Shown: positions 2,188 through 42,881 of the stretch, one piece after another
Layout of the letters: each line of letters starts with the position of its first letter
Numbering within the stretch: the stretch's first letter is position 1
DNA from: a virus
Direction: 5' to 3' (one strand)
DNA length: 64,000 nt
IMG/VR virus record: IMGVR_UViG_3300038441_000458
Span: 4,199 to 68,198 of that record
Made by a program: the position numbers and the translations under genes
The notes under the pieces: model-generated
What the model was told of the DNA's origin: nothing
Seen by the model: the letters and a program-made list of their open reading frames with translations, nothing else
Database searches by the model: none

Positions 2188-2285
2188 AACACTTGACAAC
2201 GCAACAGATAGGCCCCATACTTCAGTTATGAGGTTGAGGCGAGACGGAAGGACCGGAACGCCAGGAACCACGAAGGGCAAGCGAC
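2188..2285 (+). promoter_or_regulatory. Repeated promoter-leader cassette 1
   Basis: AACACTTGACAAC, TTGACA-N17-CATACT, AGGTTGAGG, cgg-AAGGA-ccg hairpin, GAAGGGCAA before ATG. Confidence 0.85.
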
Positions 2286-2489
2286 ATGGAATGGTTCACC
2301 GCAGAGTACGTCAACACCGCAGGCGAGACCGTCCGATCACTCGAAGCGCAGGCGAAGAACCTGAAGGGTGCGGTTGCGAAGGCGCGCAACAGCCACAACT
2401 TCCTCCTGACACACGGCGAGGACACCGAAGCGGTCACCTGCAAGATCACGATGGAGACCAGCGGCGAGACGAAGACGATCACGCTCTAA
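2286..2489 (+). CDS. Hypothetical protein (cassette gene)
   Basis: ORF directly behind the cassette leader. Confidence 0.75.
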   Translation: MEWFTAEYVNTAGETVRSLEAQAKNLKGAVAKARNSHNFLLTHGEDTEAVTCKITMETSGETKTITL

Positions 2490-2497
2490 CAGACAAC

Positions 2498-2539
2498 GGG
2501 AGCCGGGAAACCGGCTCCCACCACGAAGGGCAAGCGATC
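2498..2539 (+). repeat. Internal hairpin-leader repeat
   Basis: GGGAGCCGG-GAAA-CCGGCTCCC-ACCAC-GAAGGGCAA-ATG. Confidence 0.85.
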
Positions 2540-2785
2540 ATGGCGACACTTCCCGATTACGCAGGCATCCGGCAGTACAACCGATCACGCGCGACTGGCA
2601 CGATGGTTGGCGTGTACCACGCAGAGGAGGCAGGACTCGACCCATACGACGGACCGTGGGCCGTCATTTGCGAAGACCACGGCGCGATCATCAACGTGGC
2701 GACGCTGGCAGCAGCGAAGCACCACGCACCGGCACCACACGGCTGGTGCGACGAATGCCGCGAGGCGGCAGAGGAGACCACATGA
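2540..2785 (+). CDS. Hypothetical protein, possible Zn-binding (C/H rich)
   Basis: ATG after GAAGGGCAA; CEDH...CDEC. Confidence 0.7.
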   Translation: MATLPDYAGIRQYNRSRATGTMVGVYHAEEAGLDPYDGPWAVICEDHGAIINVATLAAAKHHAPAPHGWCDECREAAEETT

Positions 2786-3069
2786 GCCAGCGACCAGGAC
2801 CAGTGAACCAGCGACACGTCGAGCTCAGTCGATTCGTCCACCGGGCGAAGACGGTCGAGAACCAGCGAGGATCGTTCAGCACGGTAGACATCATCACCCA
2901 GGAGGAGATTGCAACGCTCAGGGAAGCGAGCGACATCATCATGGCACTGGCGACGCTGGCAGAGGCGCAGATACCACGCAAGGTGCTGATCGCCCTAGTG
3001 GGCAACGCGAGCGGCGTGCTGGCGATTGCCGACGAATTGGACAATCCAGACCAGAATTGGAAGGGCTAG
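2782..3069 (+). CDS. Hypothetical protein
   Basis: GAGGAG RBS, ATGA overlap. Confidence 0.65.
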   Translation: MSQRPGPVNQRHVELSRFVHRAKTVENQRGSFSTVDIITQEEIATLREASDIIMALATLAEAQIPRKVLIALVGNASGVLAIADELDNPDQNWKG

Positions 3070-3071
3070 AC

Positions 3072-3812
3072 ATGGAGAGCATCATTCGGGGATGCGGGAC
3101 CAGGATCAAAGGCGGCGTGTATATCGAAGTCGGATTCGCAGAGGACGGCATCGGGGAGCCGTTGGAGCACTTCCTGATCTGCCCGCCAGTCCCGGTTGAC
3201 AAGGAGCGCCAGGGCATCTCCCCCATCGGCGTGACCATCCTGCACGATGAGCGCAGCGGCGTGAACCACGTGCTCGACTGGATAGGGAAGGAGAACTACC
3301 CGAACGTCGCAGATTTCATCGAGGAGGCGCGGCGCTACGGCATCAGCAGGCGCGCCAGCAAGCAACTCCCATTCGAGTTGCTGACGCCAGGGAGCAGGCT
3401 GATCCTTGCCCACGAACGGGCGATCATCCTGAACCCGGAAGACTATCGGACCGCGATCATGCAGGAGGCGGAGGACTATCTGCTGGTCGGCATCCCGGAA
3501 CCTTGCCCGAACTCGAAGCACAACGCGCTCGGCAAGCACGGCACCGCGACGATGTGCCAGGCGCTCTACTACGAAGACGTGGAAGGCGAGTTGTCGCTGG
3601 ACCCGACCGATGCACCACGAAGCGTCGTGCGACGAATCGGGAGCACGGCGTACAACGCGAGGACGCGACCGCATGGCGTGACGCCGAAGTACGGGCTCGG
3701 CATCTTCGCGAGTTTCCCGATCACGAACATTGCGGTGATCGCAGGCGACCATGAAGCGGCAGAACAGGCGGCGCGCAAGAGCACGCTGGACGTTCGCATC
3801 GAAAACGAATAG
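3072..3812 (+). CDS. Hypothetical protein
   Basis: Long ORF, typical codon usage, starts MESIIRGCG. Confidence 0.75.
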   Translation: MESIIRGCGTRIKGGVYIEVGFAEDGIGEPLEHFLICPPVPVDKERQGISPIGVTILHDERSGVNHVLDWIGKENYPNVADFIEEARRYGISRRASKQLPFELLTPGSRLILAHERAIILNPEDYRTAIMQEAEDYLLVGIPEPCPNSKHNALGKHGTATMCQALYYEDVEGELSLDPTDAPRSVVRRIGSTAYNARTRPHGVTPKYGLGIFASFPITNIAVIAGDHEAAEQAARKSTLDVRIENE

Positions 3813-3820
3813 AGGAGCAC

Positions 3821-4087
3821 GTGGAAGGAACAGAAGGCAAGGTGGAGACGAAGACCACCACGAAGCGCATCCCGGCTGAGGTCCAGATTCGGGAGTTCCA
3901 CGGACGGGCATTCTCGTCGTTCTACACGGAGGCGGCAACGATTGACGACTGCCCGATCAATAAGATCGGCAGGAGCGAGACCAGCCCGTTCATCTTCTAC
4001 CTGTTCAACAGCGGGAAGTTGGTTGCGGAAGTGGACGTCCAGCGGGCGATTATGGCGGCAGTGGCCGACCAGGAAGGGCGAGCGTAG
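3821..4087 (+). CDS. Hypothetical protein
   Basis: GAGGAG RBS, GTG start. Confidence 0.65.
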   Translation: MEGTEGKVETKTTTKRIPAEVQIREFHGRAFSSFYTEAATIDDCPINKIGRSETSPFIFYLFNSGKLVAEVDVQRAIMAAVADQEGRA

Positions 4088-4091
4088 CACC

Positions 4092-5924: not shown

Positions 5925-5970
5925 CCCGACCGGCGCAACGCTTGACAACGGAACACAACAAAACGCATAA
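5740..5970 (+). CDS. Excisionase-like (MerR/HTH_17) DNA-binding protein
   Basis: LLRVGDAAKQASVRTDTMYRWIREG...VRIGTRTVRL; GGGAG RBS. Confidence 0.75.
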   Translation: MQTPSAPTLLRVGDAAKQASVRTDTMYRWIREGYLPKDAVVRIGTRTVRLNQEKFNAWLRNNPTGATLDNGTQQNA

Positions 5971-5971
5971 T
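5942..5971 (+). promoter_or_regulatory. Promoter upstream of the SSAP gene
   Basis: TTGACA-N18-CATAAT. Confidence 0.6.
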
Positions 5972-6014
5972 TCAATCAGACGGCGGAAGACCGCCAGCAC
6001 GAAGGAGCACGACG

Positions 6015-6659
6015 ATGGAAGGGCAAAAGGCGTTCGAGCCAGCGAAGCACCTGTCGCTGGTGAGTGGGAACGAATACCTCGAGGTGAAGTGGCGGCTGGT
6101 GTGGCTCCGCAGCGAGCACCCGGACGCCAGCATCGAGACGGAACTGGTGAAGCACGCGAACGGCGAAGCGATCTTCCGGGCGAATGTGTCGATCCCAGGA
6201 GGCGGGTCGTCAACCGGCTACGGAAGCGAAGACACGCAGTCGTTCGGGGACTACATCGAGAAGGCGGAGACGAAGGCTATCGGACGGGCGCTTGCTGCCC
6301 TCGGGTTCGGGACACAGTTCTGCATGGACTTCGACTTCGGCGCGAGTCACGGCAAGGTCGTTGACGCACCGGTCAACACCAGAGGCGGAGGCGGGTACAG
6401 TGTTTCACGTGAAACACCCGCGAGCGGAGGCGGGTACAACGGTCCGGCACCGTCGAGTACGGACCGGGCGACCGCGAAACAGATGGGCGCGATCTGGGGC
6501 GCGAAGAAACGCAACGGCATCAGCGACCAGGACTTCGGCGACCTGTGCTACGACACGGTGGGCGTTCGGGACATTGGCGACCATGACGACCGGTCCGGCG
6601 AAGTGCCGAACATTAGCAAGGCTGACGCGAGCGCGATCATCCAGGCGCTGATGGGCTAG
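6015..6659 (+). CDS. Rad52/Sak-like single-strand annealing protein
   Basis: YLEVKWRL...IEKAETKAIGRALAALGFG core; C-terminal ATAKQ...ASAII helical module. Confidence 0.75.
   Translation: MEGQKAFEPAKHLSLVSGNEYLEVKWRLVWLRSEHPDASIETELVKHANGEAIFRANVSIPGGGSSTGYGSEDTQSFGDYIEKAETKAIGRALAALGFGTQFCMDFDFGASHGKVVDAPVNTRGGGGYSVSRETPASGGGYNGPAPSSTDRATAKQMGAIWGAKKRNGISDQDFGDLCYDTVGVRDIGDHDDRSGEVPNISKADASAIIQALMG
6401..6416. promoter_or_regulatory. parS site (chromosomal ParB consensus)
   Basis: Perfect 16-bp palindrome TGTTTCACGTGAAACA. Confidence 0.85.
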
Positions 6660-6703: not shown

Positions 6704-6800
6704 AACACTTGACAACAGGCGCAGAATACCCCATGATTCACTCAGCGGTTGAGGGTGGCCGGATGGACCGGGCAGCCGAAGACCACGAAGGGCAATCTCC
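6704..6800 (+). promoter_or_regulatory. Repeated promoter-leader cassette 2
   Basis: TTGACA-N17-CATGAT, ccgg-ATGGA-ccgg, GAAGGGCAA. Confidence 0.85.
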
Positions 6801-7382
6801 ATGAACCAGCACATCACCATCGGGTACGACGTCTTCCTGCTGGCCGACAAGTACGCGGCGCAGGATGCGAGCCGACCGGCGCTCTACACGGTCAACGTCA
6901 ACGCGCGGCAGCACCGGCTGGAAGCGGCTGACGGGTTCGTGCTCGGCACGATGCCGTTCTACCTCGGCGAGGAGGACAGCATCGACCACTCGATTCTGAT
7001 CCCGGTCCCGGCGCTGAAGAAGGTCCAGAAGCTCACGGACAAGGGCGAGTCGGTCCACGTCTGGGAAGTGGACGGAAAGTGGCACCTCGGGAAACCAGAG
7101 GACTACAGCATCGTCTTCAAGCCGGTTGACGCGATCTTCGCGAACGTGGACGAAATCATGGACCGGGCGAAGGATCACAAGGACCGGTTCGCAATCGGAC
7201 CGAAGTACCTGAAACGGCTGGCAGAGACCGCGATTGCGGAAGGCTCACCGGTCGTGTGGTTCCAGTCGAACGGTCCGACCAGCGGCATCCGGTTCGCAAT
7301 CGGAGCCGACAACGAATCGAAGCTCATCAGCGGCATGGTGATGCCGGTCGTGACACGCGGCGACATTACCCCGTTCGACTAG
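6801..7382 (+). CDS. Sliding-clamp (DnaN)-like protein
   Basis: DASRPALYTV...EAADGFVL...MVMPV resembles beta-clamp domains II-III. Confidence 0.6.
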   Translation: MNQHITIGYDVFLLADKYAAQDASRPALYTVNVNARQHRLEAADGFVLGTMPFYLGEEDSIDHSILIPVPALKKVQKLTDKGESVHVWEVDGKWHLGKPEDYSIVFKPVDAIFANVDEIMDRAKDHKDRFAIGPKYLKRLAETAIAEGSPVVWFQSNGPTSGIRFAIGADNESKLISGMVMPVVTRGDITPFD

Positions 7383-11921: not shown

Positions 11922-11930
11922 GAGCAGTAC

Positions 11931-13675: not shown

Positions 13676-13771
13676 AACACTTGACAACGGGATAGACAGG
13701 CCCCATGATTCATCTATCAGGCAGAGGCGACCGGATGGACCGGGAGCCAACAGCCGGAAGGGCAAACTCCA
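13676..13771 (+). promoter_or_regulatory. Repeated promoter-leader cassette 3
   Basis: TTGACA-N17-CATGAT, ccgg-ATGGA-ccgg, GAAGGGCAA. Confidence 0.85.
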
Positions 13772-14025: not shown

Positions 14026-14047
14026 GGGAGCCCGGAAACGGGCTCCC
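14026..14047 (+). repeat. Internal hairpin repeat
   Basis: GGGAGCCCG-GAAA-CGGGCTCCC. Confidence 0.8.
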
Positions 14048-20016: not shown

Positions 20017-20071
20017 AGAACGGGAGCCCGGTTCCGGGCTCCCACCACCACGCAGGAGAGGAGCGGGATCG

Positions 20072-28265: not shown

Positions 28266-28284
28266 AGATAAGGGAGCCAGAGTT

Positions 28285-31759: not shown

Positions 31760-33517
31760 ATGACACGACGGACACCAGGCGAGCGGCAGGCAACAGTCGA
31801 GAAGTTGATCGCACGGCGCGCGGCGCATCCAGAGGAGACGCACCAGCAGACGGCGACCGCACTCGGCGTGTCGCGGCAGTGGGTGTCGAAAGAGTTGCGA
31901 GCGCGCGAGGACGTTCCGGCCGCGAGCCACCGCGAGGTAGCCATACCCGCGCACAACACCAGCAGAGCGGTCGTGGGCGTCGCACAGCGAGGCGGAGGAC
32001 GCAAGACCAGCACAAACCAGTTTGGCCCGCAGGGCGGGCTCCTGACGATCCTGCCACCACCAGACGAATACAGCCGGTGGGCAGAGTTCGGGCTGGACAT
32101 GAAGGATTGGGACCGCATCGGCACGGCGAAGCTGATGCGCGTGCTGCGGAACATGTCGCCCGACATGAGCAGGGCGATCTGGGACTACATGCGTCTCCTC
32201 AACAACGGCTACGAAATCACGGCGTACAAGCCAGGCGGCACCGATCCCGACACGCGAGCGCAGGCGAGAGTTGACGAACTGACCAGCCTGATCGAGGACC
32301 TGTACGGGAGCGCGAAGGTGCAGTTCGGTCGGATGTTCATGAATAAGCTGATGCGCGGCGCGATGCTGGTCGAGCTTGTCCTGGACGACGCAGGACGGCG
32401 AGCGGTGGACCTTGTGGTTCCCGACCCGGCGACCGTCCGGTTCCGGCGCGTGGAAGACCCGGTACGCGGCATGATCTGGCAGATGGGGCAATGGCAGAAC
32501 GGCACCTTCGTGATCCTCGACCAGCCGACCATTCGCTACATTGCGACCGATCCCGACCCGGACAACCCGTATGGCCAGCCGATGCTGACCAGCGCGATAT
32601 TCCCGATCCTGTTCCTGATCGGCCTGTTGCAGGACCTGCGGCGCGTCGTGGCGCAGCAGGGCTACCCGCGCACGGACATTGTGGTCAAGATGGAGCAACT
32701 GCGCGACGCATTCGAGACCACCAGCGACGCAGACCTGCGCGAACTCGCTCGCGCTACGGTGCGGGAAATCACGGAATACTACGGACAACTGGAACCAGAC
32801 GATGCGTTCGCCCACACGGACTTCGTAGAGGTGAGCACGAACGGCGGCGCTATCGGGACGCAGGTGCTGGCGAGCATCCAGCCGCTGATCGAGGTGTTGG
32901 AGCGCCAGGCGATGCGGGCGCTGAAGAGCACACCGCTGATGATGGGGATGGTGTCGCAGACCAGCGAGGCGAACGCAAACCGGCAGTGGGAAATCTTCGC
33001 AGCCGGAATCAAGAGCATCCAGCAGGACGCCGAAACCTTGCTCGGGCAACTCTACGAATTGAACCTCGAAATCCAGGGCATCCAGGCGACCGTCGAAGTG
33101 CGCTTCGCAGAACTGCGAGCGGCAGAGGAGGCGCGCGACGAACAGACGTTCAAGGCGAAGCTCGAGAATGCGATTGTCGCCCGCGACCAGGGATTCTGGG
33201 ACCAGGAGCAGGCGAGCATGCACGCCATTGGCGAGCCGCCAGCGTTGGCTGAGGCACCCGCACCAGCGGCCGTCCCGACCACGGACGATGAGGACCAGAC
33301 AGAGGACCAGGCGGAGCAGGAAGACGGAGACGACAGCGAGCGGCGCACGGAGATACGACGGCGCATGGCGCTGATGGGCGTGACGCGAGCGGTGGACATT
33401 AGCGACGTGGACGACGCGGCGATCATGGACGCAGCGGCGACATGGGAGGACGTGTTCGCCGACACGCGGTACGAGGACCTGATCTACGCCGACCTGATCG
33501 GAGCGACCGATGCCTAG
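31760..33517 (+). CDS. Portal protein (with N-terminal HTH-like extension)
   Basis: Size and position between TerL and MuF; DPDNPYGQP motif; acidic tail. Confidence 0.75.
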   Translation: MTRRTPGERQATVEKLIARRAAHPEETHQQTATALGVSRQWVSKELRAREDVPAASHREVAIPAHNTSRAVVGVAQRGGGRKTSTNQFGPQGGLLTILPPPDEYSRWAEFGLDMKDWDRIGTAKLMRVLRNMSPDMSRAIWDYMRLLNNGYEITAYKPGGTDPDTRAQARVDELTSLIEDLYGSAKVQFGRMFMNKLMRGAMLVELVLDDAGRRAVDLVVPDPATVRFRRVEDPVRGMIWQMGQWQNGTFVILDQPTIRYIATDPDPDNPYGQPMLTSAIFPILFLIGLLQDLRRVVAQQGYPRTDIVVKMEQLRDAFETTSDADLRELARATVREITEYYGQLEPDDAFAHTDFVEVSTNGGAIGTQVLASIQPLIEVLERQAMRALKSTPLMMGMVSQTSEANANRQWEIFAAGIKSIQQDAETLLGQLYELNLEIQGIQATVEVRFAELRAAEEARDEQTFKAKLENAIVARDQGFWDQEQASMHAIGEPPALAEAPAPAAVPTTDDEDQTEDQAEQEDGDDSERRTEIRRRMALMGVTRAVDISDVDDAAIMDAAATWEDVFADTRYEDLIYADLIGATDA

Positions 33518-34187: not shown

Positions 34188-34360
34188 ACGATGTGCAGGA
34201 ACTGTTCAGGAGCCGCAGGAGCGGCAGAAGACGATCAGACGGCAGAAGATACCCGGAAGGCGGAGGAGGACGCACAGCGACCCGCTCAGACGGCCAGGCG
34301 ACCGGTTCCAGCCGACCCTCGCCAGAAGCGACCGGTTGGGAGCCGGATGCAGAAACCGCA

Positions 34361-34603
34361 ATGAGCGCGAGCGCGAGCGACCTTGGCATCCGGGAAGTGG
34401 AGATTCGGGAGGAGTGGCGAGCCCGGATTACGACGCACCCGATGCGGGCGACGGTGTACCTTCCGTGGCGCGAGGACCAGGCGACGGTGACGATGGAGGC
34501 GCGCAACCGGAAGGCGAACCATCCAGACTGGCGCGTCGAAATCGAGCGGAGGACGGTAAAGGTCTACGTGCTTGCCAGCCACCAGACCGTCACGGTAGAA
34601 TGA
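34361..34603 (+). CDS. Hypothetical protein
   Basis: ORF ending before the terminator. Confidence 0.45.
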   Translation: MSASASDLGIREVEIREEWRARITTHPMRATVYLPWREDQATVTMEARNRKANHPDWRVEIERRTVKVYVLASHQTVTVE

Positions 34604-34621
34604 CCACGGACTGAGAGACCC

Positions 34622-34671
34622 ATGACCATTGGCCGGCTGCCCCGAATGCACCGGCCAATGGTCATTTTTGT
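34622..34671 (+). terminator. Intrinsic terminator
   Basis: ATGACCATTGGCCGG...CCGGCCAATGGTCAT followed by TTTTGT. Confidence 0.75.
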
Positions 34672-34693
34672 GCCTGCAAAATTGGTTCTTGAA

Positions 34694-34788
34694 AACACTT
34701 GACAACAGGCGCAGCGACCCCCATACTTCAGTCAAGAGGTTGAGGCGACGGGATGGACCCGGAGCCGGAAACCAAAGGAGACTCCCAA
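34694..34788 (+). promoter_or_regulatory. Repeated promoter-leader cassette 6
   Basis: TTGACA-N17-CATACT, AGGTTGAGG, cggg-ATGGA-cccg; AAAGGAG RBS variant. Confidence 0.85.
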
Positions 34789-34974
34789 ATGTTCACAGTC
34801 CTGCTTCGATACAACTACTCGACCAACCCGAACGGTGGAGTCGTCCTCGGACGATACTCCAACCGGGAGGAGGCCGCTGAAAAGGCGGCTGAGGTCCAGA
34901 AGGACCTCACCTCCGAGTACTCGGCCGTCGTGGTCGAGAACTCGGAGGTCCTCTGGCCAGTCCACTGGCTATAG
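34789..34974 (+). CDS. Hypothetical protein (cassette gene)
   Basis: ORF behind the leader. Confidence 0.7.
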   Translation: MFTVLLRYNYSTNPNGGVVLGRYSNREEAAEKAAEVQKDLTSEYSAVVVENSEVLWPVHWL

Positions 34975-35017
34975 GGCTCCGGTCCACCGGGAGTAGCGAC
35001 CCCGGTGGACAACCGCA

Positions 35018-35090
35018 AGCGACCAGCGACCAGCGACCAGCGACCAGCGACCAGCGACCAGCGACCAGCGACCAGCGACCAGCGACCAGC
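35018..35090. repeat. Tandem heptamer repeat (AGCGACC) x10
   Basis: Ten perfect copies plus AGC, intergenic. Confidence 0.95.
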
Positions 35091-35107
35091 ACAGAAGGGC
35101 AAACACC

Positions 35108-35362
35108 ATGACCAGCACGACCCGCAAGACGTGGAGCATTCGACCTACCTGCGGCCACGAAGCACTCCACAACTACACCAGCCCGCGCCTTGCGAAGGCG
35201 CACGCGCAAGCGCACGCAGACCGCAGCGGGTGCCCGGTCCACCTGACCTTCACGGACGTTGACGGATCGCCCGTCGCCGTCAAGACCTTGCGACCACGCT
35301 TCCACGGTCCGTGGCTCCCCTGCCAGACCGCGAGGAGCGAGCGCCAGGCGTTCGACGACTAG
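35108..35362 (+). CDS. Hypothetical protein (cassette gene)
   Basis: ATG after GAAGGGCAA. Confidence 0.65.
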   Translation: MTSTTRKTWSIRPTCGHEALHNYTSPRLAKAHAQAHADRSGCPVHLTFTDVDGSPVAVKTLRPRFHGPWLPCQTARSERQAFDD

Positions 35363-35382
35363 CCCGAATATCCGTTCCCCGG

Positions 35383-35476
35383 AACGCTTGACAACGGGAG
35401 CGGCAACCCGCATGATTCACTCAACAGGCGAAGGGGAGCGGATGGACCGCTTCCCGGAGCCGGAAGGGCAAGCACC
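35383..35476 (+). promoter_or_regulatory. Repeated promoter-leader cassette 7
   Basis: TTGACA-N17-CATGAT, ggggagcgg-ATGGA-ccgcttccc, GAAGGGCAA. Confidence 0.85.
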
Positions 35477-35791
35477 ATGTTCTACGTACACCAGCGCTGG
35501 GACGGGCTCTCGGCACGACGCACACAGAGCCACCGCTCGTTGTTCGCAGCCATGAACCACGCTGACGAAATCGCGGCGCTGGTGAAGTCGGAACGGAATA
35601 AGGGCATCTTCGATGCGAACATCCAGCCAGACTACGTGGTCGTCGAGACCGATTCCGGCGCTGAGGTGAAGCGGGTGCGGATCGCGATTGACCCGACCTT
35701 GGAGCCGTGGTGCGGATGGGAGCCGGGTCGGCCGTGGCACGGATGCGGCAAGTGCGACCGCTGCCGGGAGCACGCAGCACGGACGGCGTAG
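35477..35791 (+). CDS. Hypothetical protein with C-terminal Cys cluster (cassette gene)
   Basis: ORF behind the leader; CGKCDRC. Confidence 0.7.
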   Translation: MFYVHQRWDGLSARRTQSHRSLFAAMNHADEIAALVKSERNKGIFDANIQPDYVVVETDSGAEVKRVRIAIDPTLEPWCGWEPGRPWHGCGKCDRCREHAARTA

Positions 35792-35845
35792 GACACACGA
35801 CCAGGAGCCCGGAAACGGGCTCCACCACACTGAAGGGCAAGCACG

Positions 35846-36028
35846 ATGAACATTCTGGAAACGCGGGTGAAGCTGACGTGGATCAGCCCGGAAGGCAAGC
35901 TCCTCACGATCCTGTACTTCTCCAGCGTGGAGAGCGCGAACCACTGGACACGGCAGAAGATCGGAACCTTCATCTTCGACGCGGTGCCCTACCGGACGGA
36001 ACGCCAGCGCGAGGAGTACCAGGCATGA
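35846..36028 (+). CDS. Hypothetical protein (cassette gene)
   Basis: Behind internal hairpin 35804 and GAAGGGCAA. Confidence 0.7.
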   Translation: MNILETRVKLTWISPEGKLLTILYFSSVESANHWTRQKIGTFIFDAVPYRTERQREEYQA

Positions 36029-36101
36029 TCGACGTGCGACGCGGGTAGGATTCATCTACCACCAGGAGCCCGCCTACCGTCCCTGAAAATTGCCCTCGGA
36101 A

Positions 36102-36196
36102 AACGCTTGACAACGGGATACGGAGCCCCCATACTTCAGTTATCAGGTTGAGGGAGCCGGATGGACCGGCTCCCAGAAACCGGAAGGGCAAACACG
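36102..36196 (+). promoter_or_regulatory. Repeated promoter-leader cassette 8
   Basis: TTGACA-N17-CATACT, gggagccgg-ATGGA-ccggctccc, GAAGGGCAA. Confidence 0.85.
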
Positions 36197-36442
36197 ATGA
36201 AGGCTTCCGAACTCCAGATCACCGCCACCATGATCCACAACCGCAAGCTCGACCTCGCCGAAATGACGAACCGCGCGAGCGACCTCTACAACAATGGGAA
36301 GTTCGAACAGGCCGACGAACTCCGACCGCAGATGAACTGCGTTGGCAGCGAAATCGCCGGAATCCTCAGCCTCTGCACCCGGCTCGGCGTCCTCCAGGAC
36401 GTATGTGCCCTGCTTCCGGCGCACACGGAGCGCATCGGCTAG
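36197..36442 (+). CDS. Hypothetical protein (cassette gene)
   Basis: ORF behind the leader. Confidence 0.7.
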   Translation: MKASELQITATMIHNRKLDLAEMTNRASDLYNNGKFEQADELRPQMNCVGSEIAGILSLCTRLGVLQDVCALLPAHTERIG

Positions 36443-36495
36443 AGTACGCAGGGAGCCCGGCGACGGGCTCCCACCACACTGAAGGGCAAGCTCCA

Positions 36496-36702
36496 ATGAC
36501 CACGCAGAAGACCATCACCATCCGCCAGTACTTCCACCCGGTGCTTCGCCGCACGATGCAGTTGCGGGAGATCGGCAACGGACTCGCTGAGGTGTACGAC
36601 AGTGGCGGCTGGACCGGAGCGACGCAGCCGATCCCGGAAGCGGAGAAGAACCTGTACGGGATGGGCTACAAGCTCGACCGGCTGTTTGAGGCAACGCTCT
36701 AG
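36496..36702 (+). CDS. Hypothetical protein (cassette gene)
   Basis: Behind hairpin 36451 and GAAGGGCAA. Confidence 0.7.
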   Translation: MTTQKTITIRQYFHPVLRRTMQLREIGNGLAEVYDSGGWTGATQPIPEAEKNLYGMGYKLDRLFEATL

Positions 36703-36753
36703 GACACGCAGGGAGCCCGGAGACGGGCTCCCACAACGGAGAGGACCAGCACC

Positions 36754-36993
36754 ATGGCATTGCACGCACAACCGTCCCAGGAGCCCGCAGACTGCGGCCA
36801 CCACTACCCGGAGTACATCGGCACGAACGACCTCGGCGAGCCCGTTCACGTTCGGAACGTGTACGTCCACCCGGAGGACCTGACCACCACGCTGTGCCCG
36901 CACTGCTTCGACGATGCGATGTACGCCAGGGTCCCGAAGATGAGCCAGGACCAGATCGCGGCCGCGTTCGGCGCGAACGGCATCGCCAAATAA
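36754..36993 (+). CDS. Hypothetical protein, possible Zn-binding (cassette gene)
   Basis: Behind hairpin 36711; CGH...CPHC. Confidence 0.7.
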   Translation: MALHAQPSQEPADCGHHYPEYIGTNDLGEPVHVRNVYVHPEDLTTTLCPHCFDDAMYARVPKMSQDQIAAAFGANGIAK

Positions 36994-37004
36994 TCGTTCG
37001 CCGG

Positions 37005-37098
37005 AACACTTGACAACGCGAGCGCCAGGCCCCATGATTCAGTCAACGGGTTAGGGAACCGGATGGACCGGCTCCCGACACCACGAAGGGCAAGCAGC
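37005..37098 (+). promoter_or_regulatory. Repeated promoter-leader cassette 9
   Basis: TTGACA-N17-CATGAT, ccgg-ATGGA-ccgg, GAAGGGCAA. Confidence 0.85.
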
Positions 37099-37335
37099 AT
37101 GTATCAGGTTGCAGCATACGGGTACAACCGAATCACCAGCATCGCACACGGCGCAAGCATGGAGGAGGCGCGATCGGTTGCCAGGGAGTACGTGGCGAAG
37201 GAAGACGTTGGACACGTGGCGATCATCGGCGACAGCGGCATCACCGCTGAGTACTGGAAGTGCATCGACGGGAAACCGCGATCATTCGACGCTCGGGCGA
37301 ATCACATGGCCTACCGCGACATGATGTCGGCGTAG
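37099..37335 (+). CDS. Hypothetical protein (cassette gene)
   Basis: ORF behind the leader. Confidence 0.7.
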   Translation: MYQVAAYGYNRITSIAHGASMEEARSVAREYVAKEDVGHVAIIGDSGITAEYWKCIDGKPRSFDARANHMAYRDMMSA

Positions 37336-37387
37336 GAGACGCAGGGAGCCCGGAGACGGGCTCCCGACACCACGAAGGGCAAGTGAC

Positions 37388-37639
37388 ATGCGAAGCTACA
37401 CCATTACCTACCGCGAGAAGGTCAACGGCACCTTCACCGTCACGCACGACCTTCACAACTGGCGACACGTCCAGAACGCAAGCGACCAGGCGAAGGCGTA
37501 CATGGAGGACACGGCGAACCACGGACCGGTTGCTTGGGCGAGGATCACGAACGATGATACCGGTGTCGTCGCCAGAGTCCTGGAATGGGACGGAGGACGC
37601 GTCCGATCCCGGAAGTGGAGCCCAACCTTCGACGCGTAG
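37388..37639 (+). CDS. Hypothetical protein (cassette gene)
   Basis: Behind hairpin 37344 and GAAGGGCAA. Confidence 0.7.
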   Translation: MRSYTITYREKVNGTFTVTHDLHNWRHVQNASDQAKAYMEDTANHGPVAWARITNDDTGVVARVLEWDGGRVRSRKWSPTFDA

Positions 37640-37698
37640 GGATCGACCAGCACGGAGCCCGGAGACGGGCTCCACCACCGACACGGAAGGGTAAGACC

Positions 37699-37857
37699 AT
37701 GAAGCGAGCCACGAAGCAGGAAATCGACGCGCTCTGGGAGAAGTTGCAACGGGTCCAGATACTCCAGGAGCCGAAGGGTCTGACTCCGAGCACCTATCGC
37801 CGGTTGCACCGGCTCGAAATGGCACTGAGCGAGAAGTTCCTCTCGCTCAACATCTAG
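37699..37857 (+). CDS. Hypothetical protein (cassette gene)
   Basis: Behind hairpin 37654 and GAAGGGTAA. Confidence 0.65.
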   Translation: MKRATKQEIDALWEKLQRVQILQEPKGLTPSTYRRLHRLEMALSEKFLSLNI

Positions 37858-37869
37858 CAGGAGACCAGG

Positions 37870-38307
37870 ATGGAGAAGGACCCATACACCGAACTCGGCG
37901 AGGACGCGCTTGAACTGATCCTCTTTGCTGAGAATCATGGACCACTGAACGCAGACCGCGAGCGCATCCTGCGGCTGCTGATGGGCGACTACGAACGCGG
38001 CAACTACAGCACCTACCGCGCGAGCCTGTTGTGGAAGCAGCACCTGAACCGCCAGCGCCAGGCCTACCGCCACACCATGAAGGCTCCGATGTTCTTCGTC
38101 GCCTTGTCGGCAGAGGACCAGGAGCCGACCAGGATCGAGTTCGCGGAACTGGTCGAGTGGTTGGAGAAGCACGAACGCATCCTTATCGAAAACGGTGAGT
38201 ACGACCACCTGCGCAAGCAGCGCGGGTTCAGTGGGAGGAGGATCAAGCTACGTGCGGAGGCGCGCAAGCGCCAGGAGAAGATTCGCTGGCAACCAGTACG
38301 CACCTGA
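37870..38307 (+). CDS. Hypothetical protein
   Basis: AGGAG RBS. Confidence 0.65.
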   Translation: MEKDPYTELGEDALELILFAENHGPLNADRERILRLLMGDYERGNYSTYRASLLWKQHLNRQRQAYRHTMKAPMFFVALSAEDQEPTRIEFAELVEWLEKHERILIENGEYDHLRKQRGFSGRRIKLRAEARKRQEKIRWQPVRT

Positions 38308-38320
38308 AAGGAACACACGA

Positions 38321-38683
38321 ATGGGCAAGCAGGCACGCACACTCATCCTCGCGACGATCATCACCATCACGGCCGTCTTCGGAGGATTCCAGCCCGGAGC
38401 GCCAGCCCTTGCGGCAAGCTGTAGCGGAACGCCAGTGGCCGGGAGCGGTGTGGCGATTGCGAACGTCGCCTGCACCAGCACGACCAGCGTTCGCGTCTGT
38501 CTCCACCAGGACGGCTACCTCGTCGGCTGCACCTACCGCAGCGTGATCGGATTCAAGACCGTCTCCATCGCGCCAGGCTGTTGGGCGACCAGCGCGAGTC
38601 ACCGGTTCCAATCGACCCTTGCGTTCAACGGCGTTCACTACGCGAGCAGCGGGTACAAGTACGCAGCGATGAGTTGCCGCTAG
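38321..38683 (+). CDS. Secreted Cys-rich protein
   Basis: Signal peptide ending PALA; six Cys in the mature part. Confidence 0.7.
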   Translation: MGKQARTLILATIITITAVFGGFQPGAPALAASCSGTPVAGSGVAIANVACTSTTSVRVCLHQDGYLVGCTYRSVIGFKTVSIAPGCWATSASHRFQSTLAFNGVHYASSGYKYAAMSCR

Positions 38684-38709
38684 ACCGCGAGAACCAGGAC
38701 CAGAGGACC

Positions 38710-38744
38710 AGCCCGGAAGCACAACGCTTCCGGGCTCTCTTGTG
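38710..38744 (+). terminator. Putative intrinsic terminator
   Basis: AGCCCGGAAGC-N5-GCTTCCGGGCT then CTCTTGTG; near-identical to the 44484 hairpin. Confidence 0.6.
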
Positions 38745-38763
38745 CCCAAAACCCGTCGACGAA

Positions 38764-38858
38764 AACACTTGACAACAGGATACGCTACCCCCATACTTCA
38801 CTCATTGGAACTGGGGAGCGGGAAGGACCTGCTGGCCGGAACCGGAAGGGCAAACACC
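38764..38858 (+). promoter_or_regulatory. Repeated promoter-leader cassette 10
   Basis: TTGACA-N17-CATACT, agcggg-AAGGA-cctgct, GAAGGGCAA. Confidence 0.85.
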
Positions 38859-39173
38859 ATGAGCGAGCACCGCGATCAGGCTGAGGACCAGGACGGCGTT
38901 CGGACCGGAAGCTACCGCTGCACCTGCATGGGCGTCCTCGGCGAGTGCGAGCGATGCGGCGGCTGCGGCTACCGCACGATCACGATCCACGCCAGCGACC
39001 CGGTGAGCATCGTCGTCACCTTCCCGGATGATTCGTTCATCTCCGAGGACGTTCCGGCTGGCCGGGTACGCACGACGATCACCCGCTGGCTGGCGGAGAC
39101 GAACGCGATCCGGGCGACATGGTTCGTCGGCGACCACGGTCGAGCGGTCTACCCGGAGTGGGTCGGCCGCTAA
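38859..39173 (+). CDS. Hypothetical Zn-finger protein (cassette gene)
   Basis: CTC...CERCGGCG. Confidence 0.7.
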   Translation: MSEHRDQAEDQDGVRTGSYRCTCMGVLGECERCGGCGYRTITIHASDPVSIVVTFPDDSFISEDVPAGRVRTTITRWLAETNAIRATWFVGDHGRAVYPEWVGR

Positions 39174-39228
39174 CACGCAACGGAGCCGGTCAGCGTTGGC
39201 CGGCTCACCACACAGAAGGGCAAGCACG

Positions 39229-39561
39229 ATGACGACCAGGATTCAGCGACACGCACCGAAGCGCTCTGAGACGCCGCAGGATCGCCCACAGCACGTCGGA
39301 ATGAGCATGGGCAGCACATTACCCACACCAGGCGGCACGCAGGGCATCACGGTCTGCCTGCGAGACGACAACGGCGCTATGCGAACTAGTTGGTACACGG
39401 TGCCGCAGGACGAAGGCGATCAGATGCACGAAGACTTCACCCGGTGGCAGGAGGCGAACGGAGAGCACGAACCAGGCTACGGCTACATGGTGCCGATGAG
39501 CGCGGCGCAGGCATGGTTCCGCGAGCGGTTGCGGAGCGTCACGGATAAGGAGCGGTTGTGA
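39229..39561 (+). CDS. Hypothetical protein (cassette gene)
   Basis: Behind hairpin 39183 and GAAGGGCAA. Confidence 0.7.
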   Translation: MTTRIQRHAPKRSETPQDRPQHVGMSMGSTLPTPGGTQGITVCLRDDNGAMRTSWYTVPQDEGDQMHEDFTRWQEANGEHEPGYGYMVPMSAAQAWFRERLRSVTDKERL

Positions 39562-39824
39562 TCGAGTTACGGATGAAGCGCCAGGTGAAGGGTGGCGAGC
39601 CCGTCGAGGAGACGGTGGAGACCTTGCGACACACGTGGGCGGCTGCGGCCGTCTTGACCAGGATTCAGACAGCGTTCACGATCATGGAGTACCAGACGAT
39701 GCTCGACACGGAGGACATGCTCATCATGGCGAGCGAGCACGAAGTTGTCGTCGTGACCAGGAACGGAGCAGGCGACGAAACCACGCTGGAACCAGCCGAA
39801 ATATCCGTTCTTGAAAACACTTGA
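39558..39824 (+). CDS. Hypothetical protein
   Basis: TAAGGAG RBS, GTGA overlap; stop lies in the next -35 box. Confidence 0.65.
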   Translation: MIELRMKRQVKGGEPVEETVETLRHTWAAAAVLTRIQTAFTIMEYQTMLDTEDMLIMASEHEVVVVTRNGAGDETTLEPAEISVLENT

Positions 39825-39952
39825 CAACTAGTACGTTAGGCCCCATGATTCATTCAACAAGTTCAGGGTGGCCGGATGGACCGGCTCCCAACACCACGCT
39901 GGCGGCGACCTTGCCGCCAGCACCACTCACTCCCGGAAAGGGGATCACCACC
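39816..39952 (+). promoter_or_regulatory. Repeated promoter-leader cassette 11 (with an extra hairpin)
   Basis: TTGACA-N17-CATGAT, gccgg-ATGGA-ccggc, extra GCTGGCGGC..GCCGCCAGC stem. Confidence 0.8.
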
Positions 39953-40255
39953 ATGATCACGCTCACCATCACCACCGCCAACGGCCACCAGTCCACCCGT
40001 ATGTACGGTGACGACCTCGACCAGGCGGAGGAGGCGTATGCCGAATTCCTGTGCCAGCGAGCGGCTGGCGCAACGGTCCTCGACCTTCGCGATGCCGAAG
40101 GCGACAAGATCGCCGGGTACGATGCCCAGAGCGGCATCCTGTCCTCTCACGAATCGTGGGAATACTTCCTGCGCAAGTGGGACCGCGAGTCCTTGGAGGC
40201 GCGCCAGAAGGTGCGCCAGGAGTTCGGGCGAGCGGTGGCCGTAGCCACCGCATAG
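39953..40255 (+). CDS. Hypothetical protein (cassette gene)
   Basis: ORF behind the leader. Confidence 0.7.
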   Translation: MITLTITTANGHQSTRMYGDDLDQAEEAYAEFLCQRAAGATVLDLRDAEGDKIAGYDAQSGILSSHESWEYFLRKWDRESLEARQKVRQEFGRAVAVATA

Positions 40256-40296
40256 CGCGCCAGCGAGCGCCAGCGAGCGCCAGGAAGGAAACGATC

Positions 40297-40857
40297 ATGG
40301 GCTTGTGCCAGGTGACAGAAGTTCGGGCGGCGAAGAAGGATCAGGGCAAGTGCGGGAAGTGCGGCCAGGCGTTGCCAGCAGGAAGCTCGTACCGCTGGTG
40401 GAAGGGTCGGTTCGGCCCGAAGCACGTGCGGTGCGTCGGGTGCAAGGTCGAGGACTGGGAGCGCGAGACCAACCCGCTGCGAGCCGAACATATGCAGGCG
40501 GATGAGACGCTCGGGCTGGTGGAGCGAGACGTGGACGTGGCCGATCCGAGCGGTGCGGCCGTTCACCTGCGAGACGCGATCAGCGCAACGGAGAGCATCG
40601 TTGACACGCTGACCGAACGACTGGATGGGTGGAGCGGAACCGGGCTCGAGAACAGCGAGCAGTACAGCGCAACGGAGACCACGCGCGACGAACTGCAACA
40701 GTGGATCGACGACGCAGAGAGCGCAGCCGATGAGCTCGAAGGGATGGAGCAGCCAGACAGCGCAGACGATGAGGAGGCGTGGGAGGAGTGGGAGAAGGAA
40801 ATCCGGGACGCCTACGACGCGCTGCCGGAGTATCCACCGCTGGACCTTGGCGCATGA
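40297..40857 (+). CDS. Zn-ribbon plus acidic helical protein
   Basis: CGKCG...CVGC then a highly acidic C-terminal half. Confidence 0.7.
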   Translation: MGLCQVTEVRAAKKDQGKCGKCGQALPAGSSYRWWKGRFGPKHVRCVGCKVEDWERETNPLRAEHMQADETLGLVERDVDVADPSGAAVHLRDAISATESIVDTLTERLDGWSGTGLENSEQYSATETTRDELQQWIDDAESAADELEGMEQPDSADDEEAWEEWEKEIRDAYDALPEYPPLDLGA

Positions 40858-41186
40858 ACCTGCACGACAGAGTCGCCTTGCAGCGGATCGTCGGGGAGTG
40901 GGCGGCTGAGACCTTCCCTGACGACACCAGAGACACCATCAGCGCGAGCATCCGCCAGGAGTCCCAGAATCTCCGCCAGGCGGTGTTGAACGCCAGGACG
41001 GCACCAGCACCCATCGACCCGCCATTCAACACGGAGATAGCCCGCAGCGTGAGCACGATGTACCTGCTGCTGCTGCGCCTTGCCGATAAGGAAGGATTCA
41101 GCCTCCACCACGAAGCGATCCTGCGGCACGCGCTACACACAATGACGACGCCGAAACCGGCGACCACGGAGGACCAGGCGACATGA
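40854..41186 (+). CDS. MazG-like (dNTP pyrophosphatase fold) protein, degenerate
   Basis: LQRIVGEWAAETFP...LLLLRLADKEGFSL. Confidence 0.5.
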   Translation: MNLHDRVALQRIVGEWAAETFPDDTRDTISASIRQESQNLRQAVLNARTAPAPIDPPFNTEIARSVSTMYLLLLRLADKEGFSLHHEAILRHALHTMTTPKPATTEDQAT

Positions 41187-41419
41187 ACATCATCCTGCGA
41201 GGAGCGAAACCACCGAAGTATTCGTGGATCGGGAAGTGGCAGATCACGGACTGCCACACGGTCGTCGAGTTGACCGAAGACGACGTTGACGCGGTGAAGG
41301 AAATCGATGGTGGCTACAACCAGCGACCAGACATGAAGATCATGTGCCCGGTCTGCGAGGAGTGGCAGTACGCCAAACGCTACTACCCGCCAGAATATGA
41401 GGACCAGTACGGCCGCTAA
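41183..41419 (+). CDS. Hypothetical Zn-ribbon protein
   Basis: DCH...CPVC. Confidence 0.6.
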   Translation: MNIILRGAKPPKYSWIGKWQITDCHTVVELTEDDVDAVKEIDGGYNQRPDMKIMCPVCEEWQYAKRYYPPEYEDQYGR

Positions 41420-41434
41420 ATATTCGTCGACGAA

Positions 41435-41532
41435 AACACTTGACAACGGACGCGCCAGGCCCCATGATTAAGGAGTTGAAGCGAGTCGGGCCGGATGGAC
41501 CGGGCGACGAAGCTCACGAAGGGCAAGCGACC
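41435..41532 (+). promoter_or_regulatory. Repeated promoter-leader cassette 12
   Basis: TTGACA-N17-CATGAT, ccgg-ATGGA-ccgg, GAAGGGCAA. Confidence 0.85.
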
Positions 41533-41775
41533 ATGACACTCATCAACAATCACATCGACAGCGAAGCGGCGAAGGCGAAGATCGAGGAACTGAAGGTTGA
41601 GCTTCAGGCGATCTACAACGCGGCAGACCGCGACTACGACATGATCTGGGCGAAGATGAGCGCCAACACGGACATGGACCCGGTCGAATGGACTGCGCTT
41701 CAGGAGCAGATGAACGCAGCGATCCAGATCATGCTCTTGGCGCAGGCGGCAGGAGCGAAGCGGTTTACGGTCTAG
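41533..41775 (+). CDS. Hypothetical protein (cassette gene)
   Basis: ORF behind the leader. Confidence 0.7.
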   Translation: MTLINNHIDSEAAKAKIEELKVELQAIYNAADRDYDMIWAKMSANTDMDPVEWTALQEQMNAAIQIMLLAQAAGAKRFTV

Positions 41776-41829
41776 AGACCACGAAGGGGAGCCCGGAGAC
41801 GGGCTCCCTCACCACGAAGGGCAAACGAC

Positions 41830-42201
41830 ATGTGGCACAAAAATCGGCAGTGGAACATCACGGACGCGCTGAACAGCGCGACGCTGGCATTCGACATGAC
41901 CCGGATTGACTGGACGCTCTGCACGGCATGGAGGCTCCCAACGAAGGAAGGCAACCTCCTGTTCCTGAACGACAGCCTGAGCGAGGACGGCGCGGTGGAG
42001 TACGGCGTGGTCCATGAGGAGACGCTAATCCAGATCGAGAGCCTGACCATTCGCGACCAGGAGCAGGCGGCGCGGCTGATCCAGCAGACGGTCGAGACGT
42101 TCGAGGAGAAGGGTCCACTCGGCAGCATCGTCACGGACGTTCCGCAAGTGGCACAGTGGCAACTGACGACACACGGCGAACGCTGCTACTTCTGCGCGTA
42201 G
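41830..42201 (+). CDS. Hypothetical protein (cassette gene)
   Basis: Behind hairpin 41787 and GAAGGGCAA; LFLNDSLSEDGAVEYGV. Confidence 0.75.
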   Translation: MWHKNRQWNITDALNSATLAFDMTRIDWTLCTAWRLPTKEGNLLFLNDSLSEDGAVEYGVVHEETLIQIESLTIRDQEQAARLIQQTVETFEEKGPLGSIVTDVPQVAQWQLTTHGERCYFCA

Positions 42202-42252
42202 GACACGACCAGAGCCGGTCACGTTGGCCGGCTCACCACGAAGGGCAAGAAC

Positions 42253-42465
42253 ATGGGAGCATTAAATCGCCGGTCGGAGGAGTTGACTGACGTTCACGTT
42301 GAGTGGATCGCACCAGAGGAGCGGGATCATCCGGCCGATGAATTCCGGGTGGCGAAGGAGAGCGGAGCCATATACCTTGCGACCAGGAAGGAAGTCGAGA
42401 CGTTCGCGGATTCGCTTCAGGCGTTGCTCGACATGACGAAGGACACGACCAATGGCAAGCGTTGA
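42253..42465 (+). CDS. Hypothetical protein (cassette gene)
   Basis: Behind hairpin 42212 and GAAGGGCAA. Confidence 0.65.
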   Translation: MGALNRRSEELTDVHVEWIAPEERDHPADEFRVAKESGAIYLATRKEVETFADSLQALLDMTKDTTNGKR

Positions 42466-42829
42466 CCTGCGGCAGACCATCGAGCGCGCGTGCGTCCTCC
42501 TGGTCCGGGAAGTGGACGCGCGAGGAGAGCCGACCAGCGACCGCGAGGCGTACGCGACCAGGCACCTGCACTACCTCCTCGACGAAGGGCTCAGCTTCCT
42601 TGCCCTTGCGGAACGCGGCGCAACGAACGACACCATCATCGAGCGCGGCTGGCGCGACACGGAGGCGCACCGTATGGCATACCAGGATCGGAGCCAGGCG
42701 ACACCAGCGGAGCGCGAGCGCGTGCGAATCATGGCCCGCAACCTGTTCCGAGCCCAACCGGTCGTCATGAAAATTGGTCCCCGTAAACACTTGACAACGC
42801 GAACCGCAGGCCCCATACTTCGATCATAA
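42452..42829 (+). CDS. Hypothetical protein
   Basis: AAGGA RBS; C-terminus reads through the next promoter. Confidence 0.55.
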   Translation: MASVDLRQTIERACVLLVREVDARGEPTSDREAYATRHLHYLLDEGLSFLALAERGATNDTIIERGWRDTEAHRMAYQDRSQATPAERERVRIMARNLFRAQPVVMKIGPRKHLTTRTAGPILRS

Positions 42830-42881
42830 GGTTGAGGCGGGAGGAGGGACCTTCCACCGAAGACCACGAAGGGCAAGCGAC
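42786..42881 (+). promoter_or_regulatory. Repeated promoter-leader cassette 13
   Basis: TTGACA-N17-CATACT, AGGTTGAGG, gggagg-AGGGA-ccttcc, GAAGGGCAA. Confidence 0.85.

Follow-up and report, generated by a model that had tools for sequence, protein, structure and literature searches.

Here we describe a family of leader hairpins that accompanies thirteen promoters of an uncultivated soil phage, in a window of 64,000 nucleotides (nt) corresponding to bases 4199-68198 of the 68,198-bp IMG/VR virus record IMGVR_UViG_3300038441_000458 (positions below are those of the window). Each hairpin presents the pentaloop ANGGA, lies between a sigma70-like promoter and the start of a gene, and is selected as sense-strand RNA, its apex being invariant while its stems covary. 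A shared recognition element is the most economical reading of this base-specific apex on covarying stems, and we tentatively propose that the hairpin may be an RNA operator through which a trans-acting factor would set the translation and/or the stability of first cistrons.

Thirteen promoter cassettes share a leader hairpin with an invariant apex

The core word GGANGGACC was found in 14 copies, all on the + strand, when 4.55 +/- 2.25 copies were expected, and none of 100 shuffled sequences reached 14. Thirteen of these copies sit 25-27 nt 3' of a promoter-like unit; the fourteenth (12429) lies inside a coding sequence where the promoter is absent and was taken as a chance occurrence. When promoter and core word were combined into one joint pattern (TTGACA-N14-CCNCAT-N22-30-GGANGGACC), 13 matches were obtained against 0.00 expected, which, together with the 13 hits of a covariance model (see below), bears out the original prediction, made from the sequence alone, that all 13 promoter cassettes carry an ANGGA hairpin. 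The stems that it had quoted are also all present in the sequence, with contiguous inner stems of 3-9 bp. Its count of only 13 promoter copies did not hold: the -35 box has 16 copies in the genome, and the ANGGA hairpin is absent at three of them (5937, 28253 and 43603).

Each cassette spans ~100 nt and strings together an extended -35 box, a 17-nt spacer, CATACT or CATGAT, the hairpin, a ribosome-binding site (RBS) box and an ATG. The 5' part reads as an A/T-rich box, AAC[AG]CTTGACAAC, 12 variable nt and CC[CG]CAT(AC|GA)TT, and the 3' part continues with ~11 nt, the hairpin, AC(C)/CAC, the box GAAGGGCAA (in 11 of the 13 cassettes), 5-6 nt and the ATG. The promoter (TTGACA, 17 nt, CATACT/CATGAT) is sigma70-like, with 10 of 12 consensus matches in the cassettes scanned, and its arrangement is the same in all 13 cases. 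Loop positions 1, 3, 4 and 5 and both closing G-C pairs are invariant, while loop position 2 varies (A in 4 copies, T in 8 and G in 1), the 12-nt promoter spacer drifts freely and the mean column identity of the cassettes is 58%. From the ANGGA apex to the start codon, the distance is 30-35 nt, with one case at 71 nt.

The cassettes precede genes for replication, DNA modification, terminase and portal, and also small open reading frames (ORFs), so that the earlier designation of their products as early transcripts was an assumption. An ATG is contained in eight of the 13 loops (6763, 13735, 34753, 35442, 36161, 37063, 39876 and 41495). As a start codon, this triplet would be in frame with the gene in three of the eight cases, would open short frames ending in an ATGA overlap with the main start in three others and would do neither in the last two; a function for it was rejected, since the pattern is not significant and since ATG is absent from 5 of the 13 loops. 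On the minus strand, weak divergent promoters (9 of 12 matches) were noted at three cassettes (35394-35367, 39827-39800 and 41446-41419), which owe their score to the A/T box upstream and to the near-palindrome formed by the -35 box.

The hairpin folds and covaries as sense-strand RNA

Single-sequence folds gave a ~36-nt stem-loop built in three tiers, alike in 12 of the 13 copies. Its outer helix reads GGUU/RACC, sometimes with compensated changes, and is followed by a purine-rich internal loop, then by a middle helix GG(G)/(C)CC and finally by a variable inner helix closed by the two invariant G-C pairs around A-N-G-G-A. The optimal fold of cassette 11 does without the outer helix, although this helix could form. 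The stem described originally is therefore correct as far as it goes, but the hairpin is larger, with two further helices outside it, and the conserved box noted ahead of the stem corresponds to the 5' strand of these outer helices.

The apical loop holds ANGGA in the minimum-free-energy folds of all 13 copies, and fold Z-scores relative to dinucleotide shuffles ranged from -1.45 to -4.88 (-2.6 or below in 11 of 13). A covariance model built from the 13 copies gave exactly 13 hits of at least 31.8 bits, all on the + strand, when the next best hit in the window scored 16.8 bits. Covariation was then measured on an alignment fitted to the structure, whose rows are 13 paralogues of a single genome, so that the following figures lean towards structure: paired cells amounted to 79.8% against 68.5% after shuffling (reached in 0 of 500 shuffles), the covariation score was 0.272 against 0.101 (again reached in 0 of 500, with slid controls at 0.120 or less), and 7 of 13 pairs were changed on both sides against a shuffled mean of 4.1 (reached in 8 of 500). 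In 10 of the 13 copies, folding favours the sense strand over the antisense (mean -2.4 kcal/mol, Wilcoxon p = 0.026). Covariation, fold Z-scores and sense-over-antisense folding thus support the earlier claim of RNA-level selection for pairing, and the hairpin is very probably real at the RNA level. Covariation is significant within the 13 paralogues; the count of G.U versus A.C pairs on the fitted alignment (7 versus 6), a cruder measure, shows no strand bias and is uninformative. A comparison with Rfam, which had also been suggested, returned only five tRNA hits at the gathering score and nothing for eight cassettes searched with E values up to 5.

The hairpin adjoins the Shine-Dalgarno (SD) sequence and does not pair with it, ending 2-4 nt 5' of the RBS box. 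The base of its stem lies ~4-5 nt from the +1 predicted from promoter spacing, and no T-run follows it 3' in any of the 13 cassettes.

Promoter-less sister hairpins share the scaffold and carry other loops

Two elements that change how the hairpin is to be read had been missed in the original picture: an over-represented RBS box and a set of sister hairpins without promoter. The word GAAGGGCA is present in 35 copies (33 of them on the + strand) within 2272-43110, a ~14-fold excess over the 2.55 copies expected. Twenty-three copies lie 5-7 nt (two outliers, 0-1 nt) 5' of the start codon of ORFs of at least 60 amino acids, 11 of them in cassettes and 12 at promoter-less junctions. From this placement, GAAGGGCA appears to be a start-associated RBS box of at least 23 ORFs. 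These ORFs belong, with one exception, to the non-structural part of the genome, and the other genes mostly use AGGAG or GGAGG as SD.

The promoter-less hairpins are 12 GC-rich intergenic elements, devoid of T-runs, located between an upstream stop codon and ACCAC followed by the RBS. Ten of them have near-identical stems of the type GGGAGCC[CG]G-loop-C[CG]GGCTCCC, with GAAA (4), GAGA (4), GCGA (1) or GTTC (1) as the loop, and the two others are variants. GNRA tetraloops cap 9 of the 12 and ANGGA none, compared with 13 of 13 promoter-proximal hairpins capped by ANGGA, and the outer helix was found in promoter-proximal copies only. Since the internal hairpins carry neither of the two, apex and outer helix together are a hallmark of the copies that stand next to a promoter. 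The inner stem of cassette 8 is identical to that of the promoter-less hairpins at 2498 and 43075 and carries the loop ATGGA instead.

All the promoter-less hairpins are on the + strand. Those with a GAAA loop lie at 2498-2519 (GGGAGCCGG-GAAA-CCGGCTCCC, then ACCAC, the GAAGGGCAA box and ATG), at 14026-14047 and at 35804-35823 and 43075-43096 (both followed by the RBS box and ATG). GAGA loops are found at 36711-36732, 37344-37365 (then GACACCAC, the RBS box and ATG), 37654-37673 and 41787-41808 (then the RBS box and ATG), GCGA at 36451-36472 (then an RBS box at 36481 and ATG) and GTTC at 20022-20043. The two variants are located at 39183-39206 (GAGCCGGTCA..TGGCCGGCTC, then ACCACACA, the RBS box and ATG) and at 42212-42234 (then ACCAC, the RBS box and ATG).

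Three -35 boxes lack the ANGGA hairpin

The three -35 boxes without an ANGGA hairpin, also on the + strand, differ from each other. At 5937-6017, the box stands with another -10 and precedes a degenerate hairpin (GGCGG-AAGA-CCGCC, 5982-5995), the SD GAAGGAG and an ATG (6015). The isolated 13-nt box at 28253-28265 has neither -10 nor hairpin and is directly followed by an SD-like AAGGGAG, with an ATG ~8 nt further on; this bare box (28253-28290) is possibly a recombination scar between cassettes. The third copy (43603-43637), combined with GAGAAT, is the promoter of a tRNA cluster, and no leader hairpin is present there.

This cluster (43603-44510) consists of five tRNA genes (Leu, Ser, Pro, Thr and Tyr) with their own hairpin-less promoter and a terminator at the end (44484-44510, + strand), where a hairpin and a T-run close the cluster ahead of the structural genes. 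Two hairpin-plus-T-run matches were found on the + strand of the genome, of which 44484-44510 is the only strong canonical one, the other (genome 430-446) being weak. Direct reading of the sequence between this terminator and the first structural gene (44697) revealed no recognisable promoter.

The hairpin as a candidate RNA operator

If the hairpin is an RNA operator, as we tentatively propose, then the ANGGA apex and the extra outer helix would form a recognition site on the 5' leaders of primary transcripts, and a sequence-specific factor, either a phage or a host protein, would read the apex. Once bound, this factor would act on all 13 transcription units together, controlling translation initiation and/or the stability of their first cistrons, for example as a coordinated shut-off or as a timing switch. 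The unit made of hairpin, ACCAC and RBS box would also be a standardised translation-initiation module, which may double as a site where recombination shuffles genes.

That the apex is recognised, and does not merely fold, is suggested by its base-by-base conservation beside non-functional positions that drift, and an mRNA-specific post-transcriptional role on primary transcripts is suggested by the link to promoters, by the absence of the hairpin at the tRNA promoter and by its contact with the RBS. Two other observations speak for an RNA operator: the hairpin of cassette 11 stays with its promoter though SD and ATG lie 60 nt further, and the loop type tracks context (ANGGA promoter-proximal, GNRA mostly internal). 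Several points weigh on the other side. Among the matches listed for 70 ORFs, no translational repressor, antiterminator or RNA-binding regulator was found, save an ASCH/DUF3850 protein (23345-24556). All the covariation comes from 13 paralogues of one genome, because no orthologous cassettes were retrieved from other phages. The transcription start sites are predictions, and an invariant loop could equally serve a ribosome contact or an RNA-RNA contact.

A bolder version, which we consider doubtful, would see a two-letter "loop code" on one scaffold, in which GNRA would stand for an internal cistron and ANGGA for the 5' end of a primary transcript, the latter loop serving as a phage-wide regulon handle for a GGA-loop-binding protein (a new phage operator protein or a host CsrA-type regulator). 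If such a code exists and its reader is a host regulator, then 13 abundant leaders would sequester this regulator and infection would rewire the post-transcriptional control of the host. More generally, a reader protein would make the hairpins a genome-wide post-transcriptional switch with a role comparable to that of RegA in phage T4, though relying on a hairpin. We found no phage described in the open-access literature with ANGGA-capped leader hairpins on all its promoters.

Alternative readings of the hairpin

Considering that an invariant loop could also be read by other partners, the ribosome itself is one candidate. The SD-like loop GGA, next to the true SD, could serve first cistrons by recruiting or parking a 30S subunit, ribosomes reaching internal cistrons from upstream, and the docked subunit and the 5' helix could shield the 5' end from decay, as with STAB-SD-type stabilisers of Gram-positive bacteria, where a docked subunit protects against 5' decay. 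This protein-independent mechanism would explain the limitation to first cistrons, as the ANGGA apex and the outer helix, which brings the stem close to the predicted 5' end, are confined to promoter-proximal copies; AAGGA also matches the core SD of other genes of the phage (AGGAG/AAGGA), and endolysin architecture and a DnaD-like loader weakly point to a monoderm host, in which decay dependent on the 5' end is important. Only 3-5 nt are however complementary to a generic anti-SD, and these are inside a closed pentaloop; moreover, AUGGA in 8 of the 13 loops weakens anti-SD pairing, and docking does not account for two closing G-C pairs that never vary, making ribosome docking possible but not likely. 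The original prediction had rather identified the loop as a CsrA/RsmA recognition motif, in which case a host CsrA/Rsm-type protein would bind the loops and regulate phage messages, or 13 abundant leaders would titrate this host regulator. A GGA is indeed found in the hairpin loop of 13 of 13 copies. A CsrA dimer would call for a second GGA within its reach at the SD; 8 of the 13 cassettes have one in or next to the SD, ~20-25 nt further 3', and the 5 others have GAAGGG only. The accessible part of PMC4005645 documents A-N-G-G-A hairpin loops located upstream of, and spaced from, the SD as RsmE targets, with AAGGA and AGGGA pentaloops of high affinity. In the same part of that source, the stem is contacted and RsmZ stem-loops are closed by C-G then U-A (one of them with G-C as second pair), when the phage hairpins are closed by G-C/G-C in 13 of 13 copies, and the 8 loops with a pyrimidine at N (AUGGA) are of a form outside its pentaloop result (PMC4005645). 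In addition, the phage encodes no CsrA gene; a CsrA gene was found in one of five metagenome-assembled genomes (MAGs) carrying portal relatives, four showing none (MAGs being incomplete). CsrA recognition would also leave the conserved outer helices unexplained. Altogether, a host CsrA as the reader is possible but looks unlikely.

The hairpin might also be selected for its structure only, as an insulator or a stabiliser, with a loop that is invariant due to recent cassette spread or gene conversion. The cassettes are repeated modules, a relative detected in a soil run (X14) is rearranged at cassette borders and the internal hairpins are nearly identical copies, but the cassettes themselves are well diverged (58% mean column identity, with variable spacer and stems) and loop position 2 varies when positions 1, 3, 4 and 5 never do, which argues for purifying selection on bases and not for recent copying, rendering this explanation quite improbable. 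Processive antitermination, to which the resemblance with nut-type boxA/boxB sites had pointed, appears decidedly improbable: the nascent hairpin would load a factor on RNA polymerase for read-through of hairpins and of the terminator at 44484 into the structural genes. Lambdoid phages have two nut sites, each a small promoter-proximal hairpin with a 5-nt loop acting on nascent RNA, and the phage hairpin is reminiscent of these in position and size; many GC-rich, T-run-less hairpins lie downstream of it, and direct reading revealed no promoter from the terminator to the first structural gene. The boxB loop is however GNRA-like, which ANGGA is not, and 13 loading sites would be unusual compared with two in lambdoid phages. 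Searches with boxA words gave 0 hits for the 8-nt words and three for the 6-nt core, none in a cassette. A single strong canonical terminator was found, and the promoter nearest to it, that of the tRNAs, has no hairpin. No antiterminator family is among the matches listed, no scan aimed at N-like arginine-rich antiterminators having been made. Finally, the element could act at the DNA level, as an asymmetric, stoperator-like operator or as a cruciform bound by a phage helix-turn-helix (HTH) protein. The core GGANGGACC is invariant, asymmetric and in a single orientation, the phage encodes several HTH proteins and the internal hairpins are near-perfect conserved palindromes; but the flanks covary instead of being conserved and, for 10 of the 13 copies, the better fold is that of the sense strand, so that a DNA site seems hardly credible.

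Resemblance to start-associated and promoter-stem-loop elements of other phages

In the accessible parts of two reports, on Cluster K mycobacteriophages (PMC3203893) and on Cluster EF Microbacterium phages (PMC7302621), start-associated motifs (SAS) are described as unusually well conserved where the RBS of a non-structural gene lies, 3-7 nt before the start; their 10-19 copies all have the same orientation, with a subset (ESAS) that has an extra upstream inverted repeat and whose function is not established. As far as the available text of the Cluster K report goes, its authors found no support for RNA pairing in ESAS repeats (PMC3203893). The GAAGGGCA box resembles these SAS in being conserved, asymmetric and at the RBS position, a functional resemblance and not a membership by sequence, into which the ANGGA apex does not fit. 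The published words also consist of a G-run, an SD-like purine core and a C-run, like the phage apex GG-ANGGA-CC. However, the sequences are unrelated and the consensus published in the parts consulted is not matched (PMC3203893, PMC7302621), and the ANGGA apex is further from the start (30-35 nt, once 71 nt) than the 3-7 nt of SAS. Unlike what those parts report for ESAS, the phage pairs covary, and a promoter is joined directly to the upstream element.

PeSL cassettes of T4-type phages are, according to the accessible part of PMC2839356 (see also PMC4122927), small repeated units made of a strong sigma70-like promoter and a stem-loop, which are concentrated among small accessory ORFs and act as recombination points. 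The phage cassettes share the strong sigma70-like promoter and may resemble PeSLs in two other ways: eight of the 13 are located in a ~10-kb block that splits the portal and capsid genes, and the X14 relative has joints at element borders (one run, 80% likeness) reminiscent of PeSL modular shuffling. By contrast, the PeSL stem-loop is presented there as a terminator (PMC2839356), when the phage hairpin is in a transcribed leader, without T-run and with an invariant loop. By analogy, the phage system would work like SAS and PeSL elements fused, as a member of neither.

The start-associated motifs of actinobacteriophages have been unexplained since 2011, at least in the accessible part of the report that describes them (PMC3203893), and the phage hairpins offer a cleaner case, with one scaffold, two loop types fully split by context and covarying pairs; with such a system, a loop swap would directly test whether such motifs are RNA operators. 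The modules would also illustrate a shuffling of genes driven by promoter and RBS cassettes in a phage that does not belong to the T4 group.

Cassette positions, rearrangements and relatives

All 13 cassettes lie on the + strand. In cassette 1 (2188-2288), the -35 box (2188-2200) is followed by the hairpin (2229-2272, AAGGA), the RBS box (2272-2279) and the ATG (2286). AAGGA also caps cassettes 4 (19654-19752; hairpin 19695-19736, ATG 19750), 5 (21734-21832; hairpin 21776-21817, ATG 21830) and 10 (38764-38861; hairpin 38805-38846, ATG 38859), the outer helices of the latter being altered but compensated, with four G.U pairs. ATGGA is found in cassettes 2 (6704-6803; hairpin 6745-6787, ATG 6801), 3 (13676-13774; hairpin 13717-13758, ATG 13772), where the outer helix is GGC/GCC and not GGUU/RACC, 6 (34694-34791; hairpin 34735-34776, ATG 34789), which has a different SD (AAAGGAG), and 7 (35383-35479; hairpin 35424-35465, ATG 35477), with an inner stem of 9 bp including one G.U. 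The same loop caps cassettes 8 (36102-36199; hairpin 36143-36184, inner stem GGGAGCCGG/CCGGCTCCC, ATG 36197), 9 (37005-37101; hairpin 37045-37086, ATG 37099), 11 (39816-39955; hairpin 39858-39898), where a second hairpin (39898-39921) and a different SD precede the ATG (39953), and 12 (41435-41535; hairpin 41477-41518, ATG 41533). Cassette 13 (42786-42884; hairpin 42827-42868, ATG 42882) carries AGGGA.

Eight of these cassettes are gathered in a ~10-kb block (34200-44700) together with many small ORFs and five tRNAs. This block separates the portal gene (31760-33517) from the capsid gene (46487-47734), when the portal-capsid distance is ~4-5 kb in three relatives (L163, L164 and L083). Rearrangements were seen in contigs of one soil run (X14) placed at 80% likeness, that is, in a single run and at low stringency: there, a relative ~90-95% identical to the phage has deletions or rearrangements that end at RBS boxes, short repeats or the borders of hairpins and promoters. 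One joint (36182 to 36481) runs between two GAAGGGCAA boxes, with the loss of one gene and its hairpin, another (41168 to 41399) between two 9-nt repeats, and a third (43096 to 41430) links the 3' edge of a promoter-less hairpin to a point immediately 5' of a promoter; further joints are at 39559/39796, 40502/40603 and 39884/42858. The block also contains two tandem repeats, intergenic or at ORF ends, namely the 7-nt unit CAGCGAC repeated ~9 times (35024-35090) and a GCGCCAGCGA-type unit (~40250-40280).

Relatives were searched for in several ways. Two exact-pattern scans of viral contigs gave 28 and 46 single-hit loci, all of which were chance on inspection, and an exact-pattern metagenome scan gave 17 loci, 16 by chance and one, on a 4.7-kb contig from another metagenome (L187), belonging to the same phage (99.98% identity). 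The portal protein query alone gave no relative; the portal alignment recovered 80 IMG/VR loci at no more than 49% identity and 17 MAG loci, closer portal homologues (55-58% identity) coming from other collections. ANGGA hairpins were not enriched in these 80 IMG/VR and 17 MAG loci, and the best score of the covariance model over 1.2 Mb was 20.3 bits (E = 0.066). Repeats were seen in the loci of four relatives; those of L083, the closest IMG/VR relative, are unrelated to the ANGGA cassette and form an intergenic palindrome of the GTAGCCA..TGGCTAC type (12854, 13806, 15617 and 21387, with a weak copy at 10228).

The phage and its host

The phage is present in soil metagenome runs, and there were no RNA data sets among the runs listed as carrying it. 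Its record has a 69-bp terminal repeat and ~63% G+C, with credible genes all on the + strand as judged from codon-position G+C. No nucleotide relative was found among isolated phages; at the protein level, identities did not exceed 30%, to Achromobacter, Caulobacter, Acinetobacter and Bacillus phages, and the layout of Achromobacter phage JWF differs. Pfam and PHROGs scans of the 70 ORFs (25 of 49 PHROG families listed) revealed an Amidase_2 endolysin, DnaB, a second helicase, an ASCH/DUF3850 protein, ParB, several HTH proteins, an amino-acid:DNA transferase (thymidine hypermodification), a terminase-like protein, the portal and the major capsid protein, and the phage has six tRNA genes.

The lysis region (70-1903) encodes a holin-like protein with four transmembrane segments, a 324-amino-acid amidase with a C-terminal domain and a 139-amino-acid membrane protein, and no lipobox spanin was seen in it, a gene content that hints at a monoderm host. 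The endolysin architecture and the DnaD-like loader give a weak hint in the same direction, and Atlas look-alikes were mostly from Bacillota. A likely DNA hypermodification cluster (23345-26773 and neighbours) includes the ASCH/DUF3850 protein, the amino-acid:DNA transferase with an aGPT-pyrophosphorylase-like region, a P-loop nucleotide kinase 3, an FAD oxidoreductase and methyltransferases. Directly 3' of the major capsid gene, a perfect 15-bp hairpin without T-run is found at 47764-47801.

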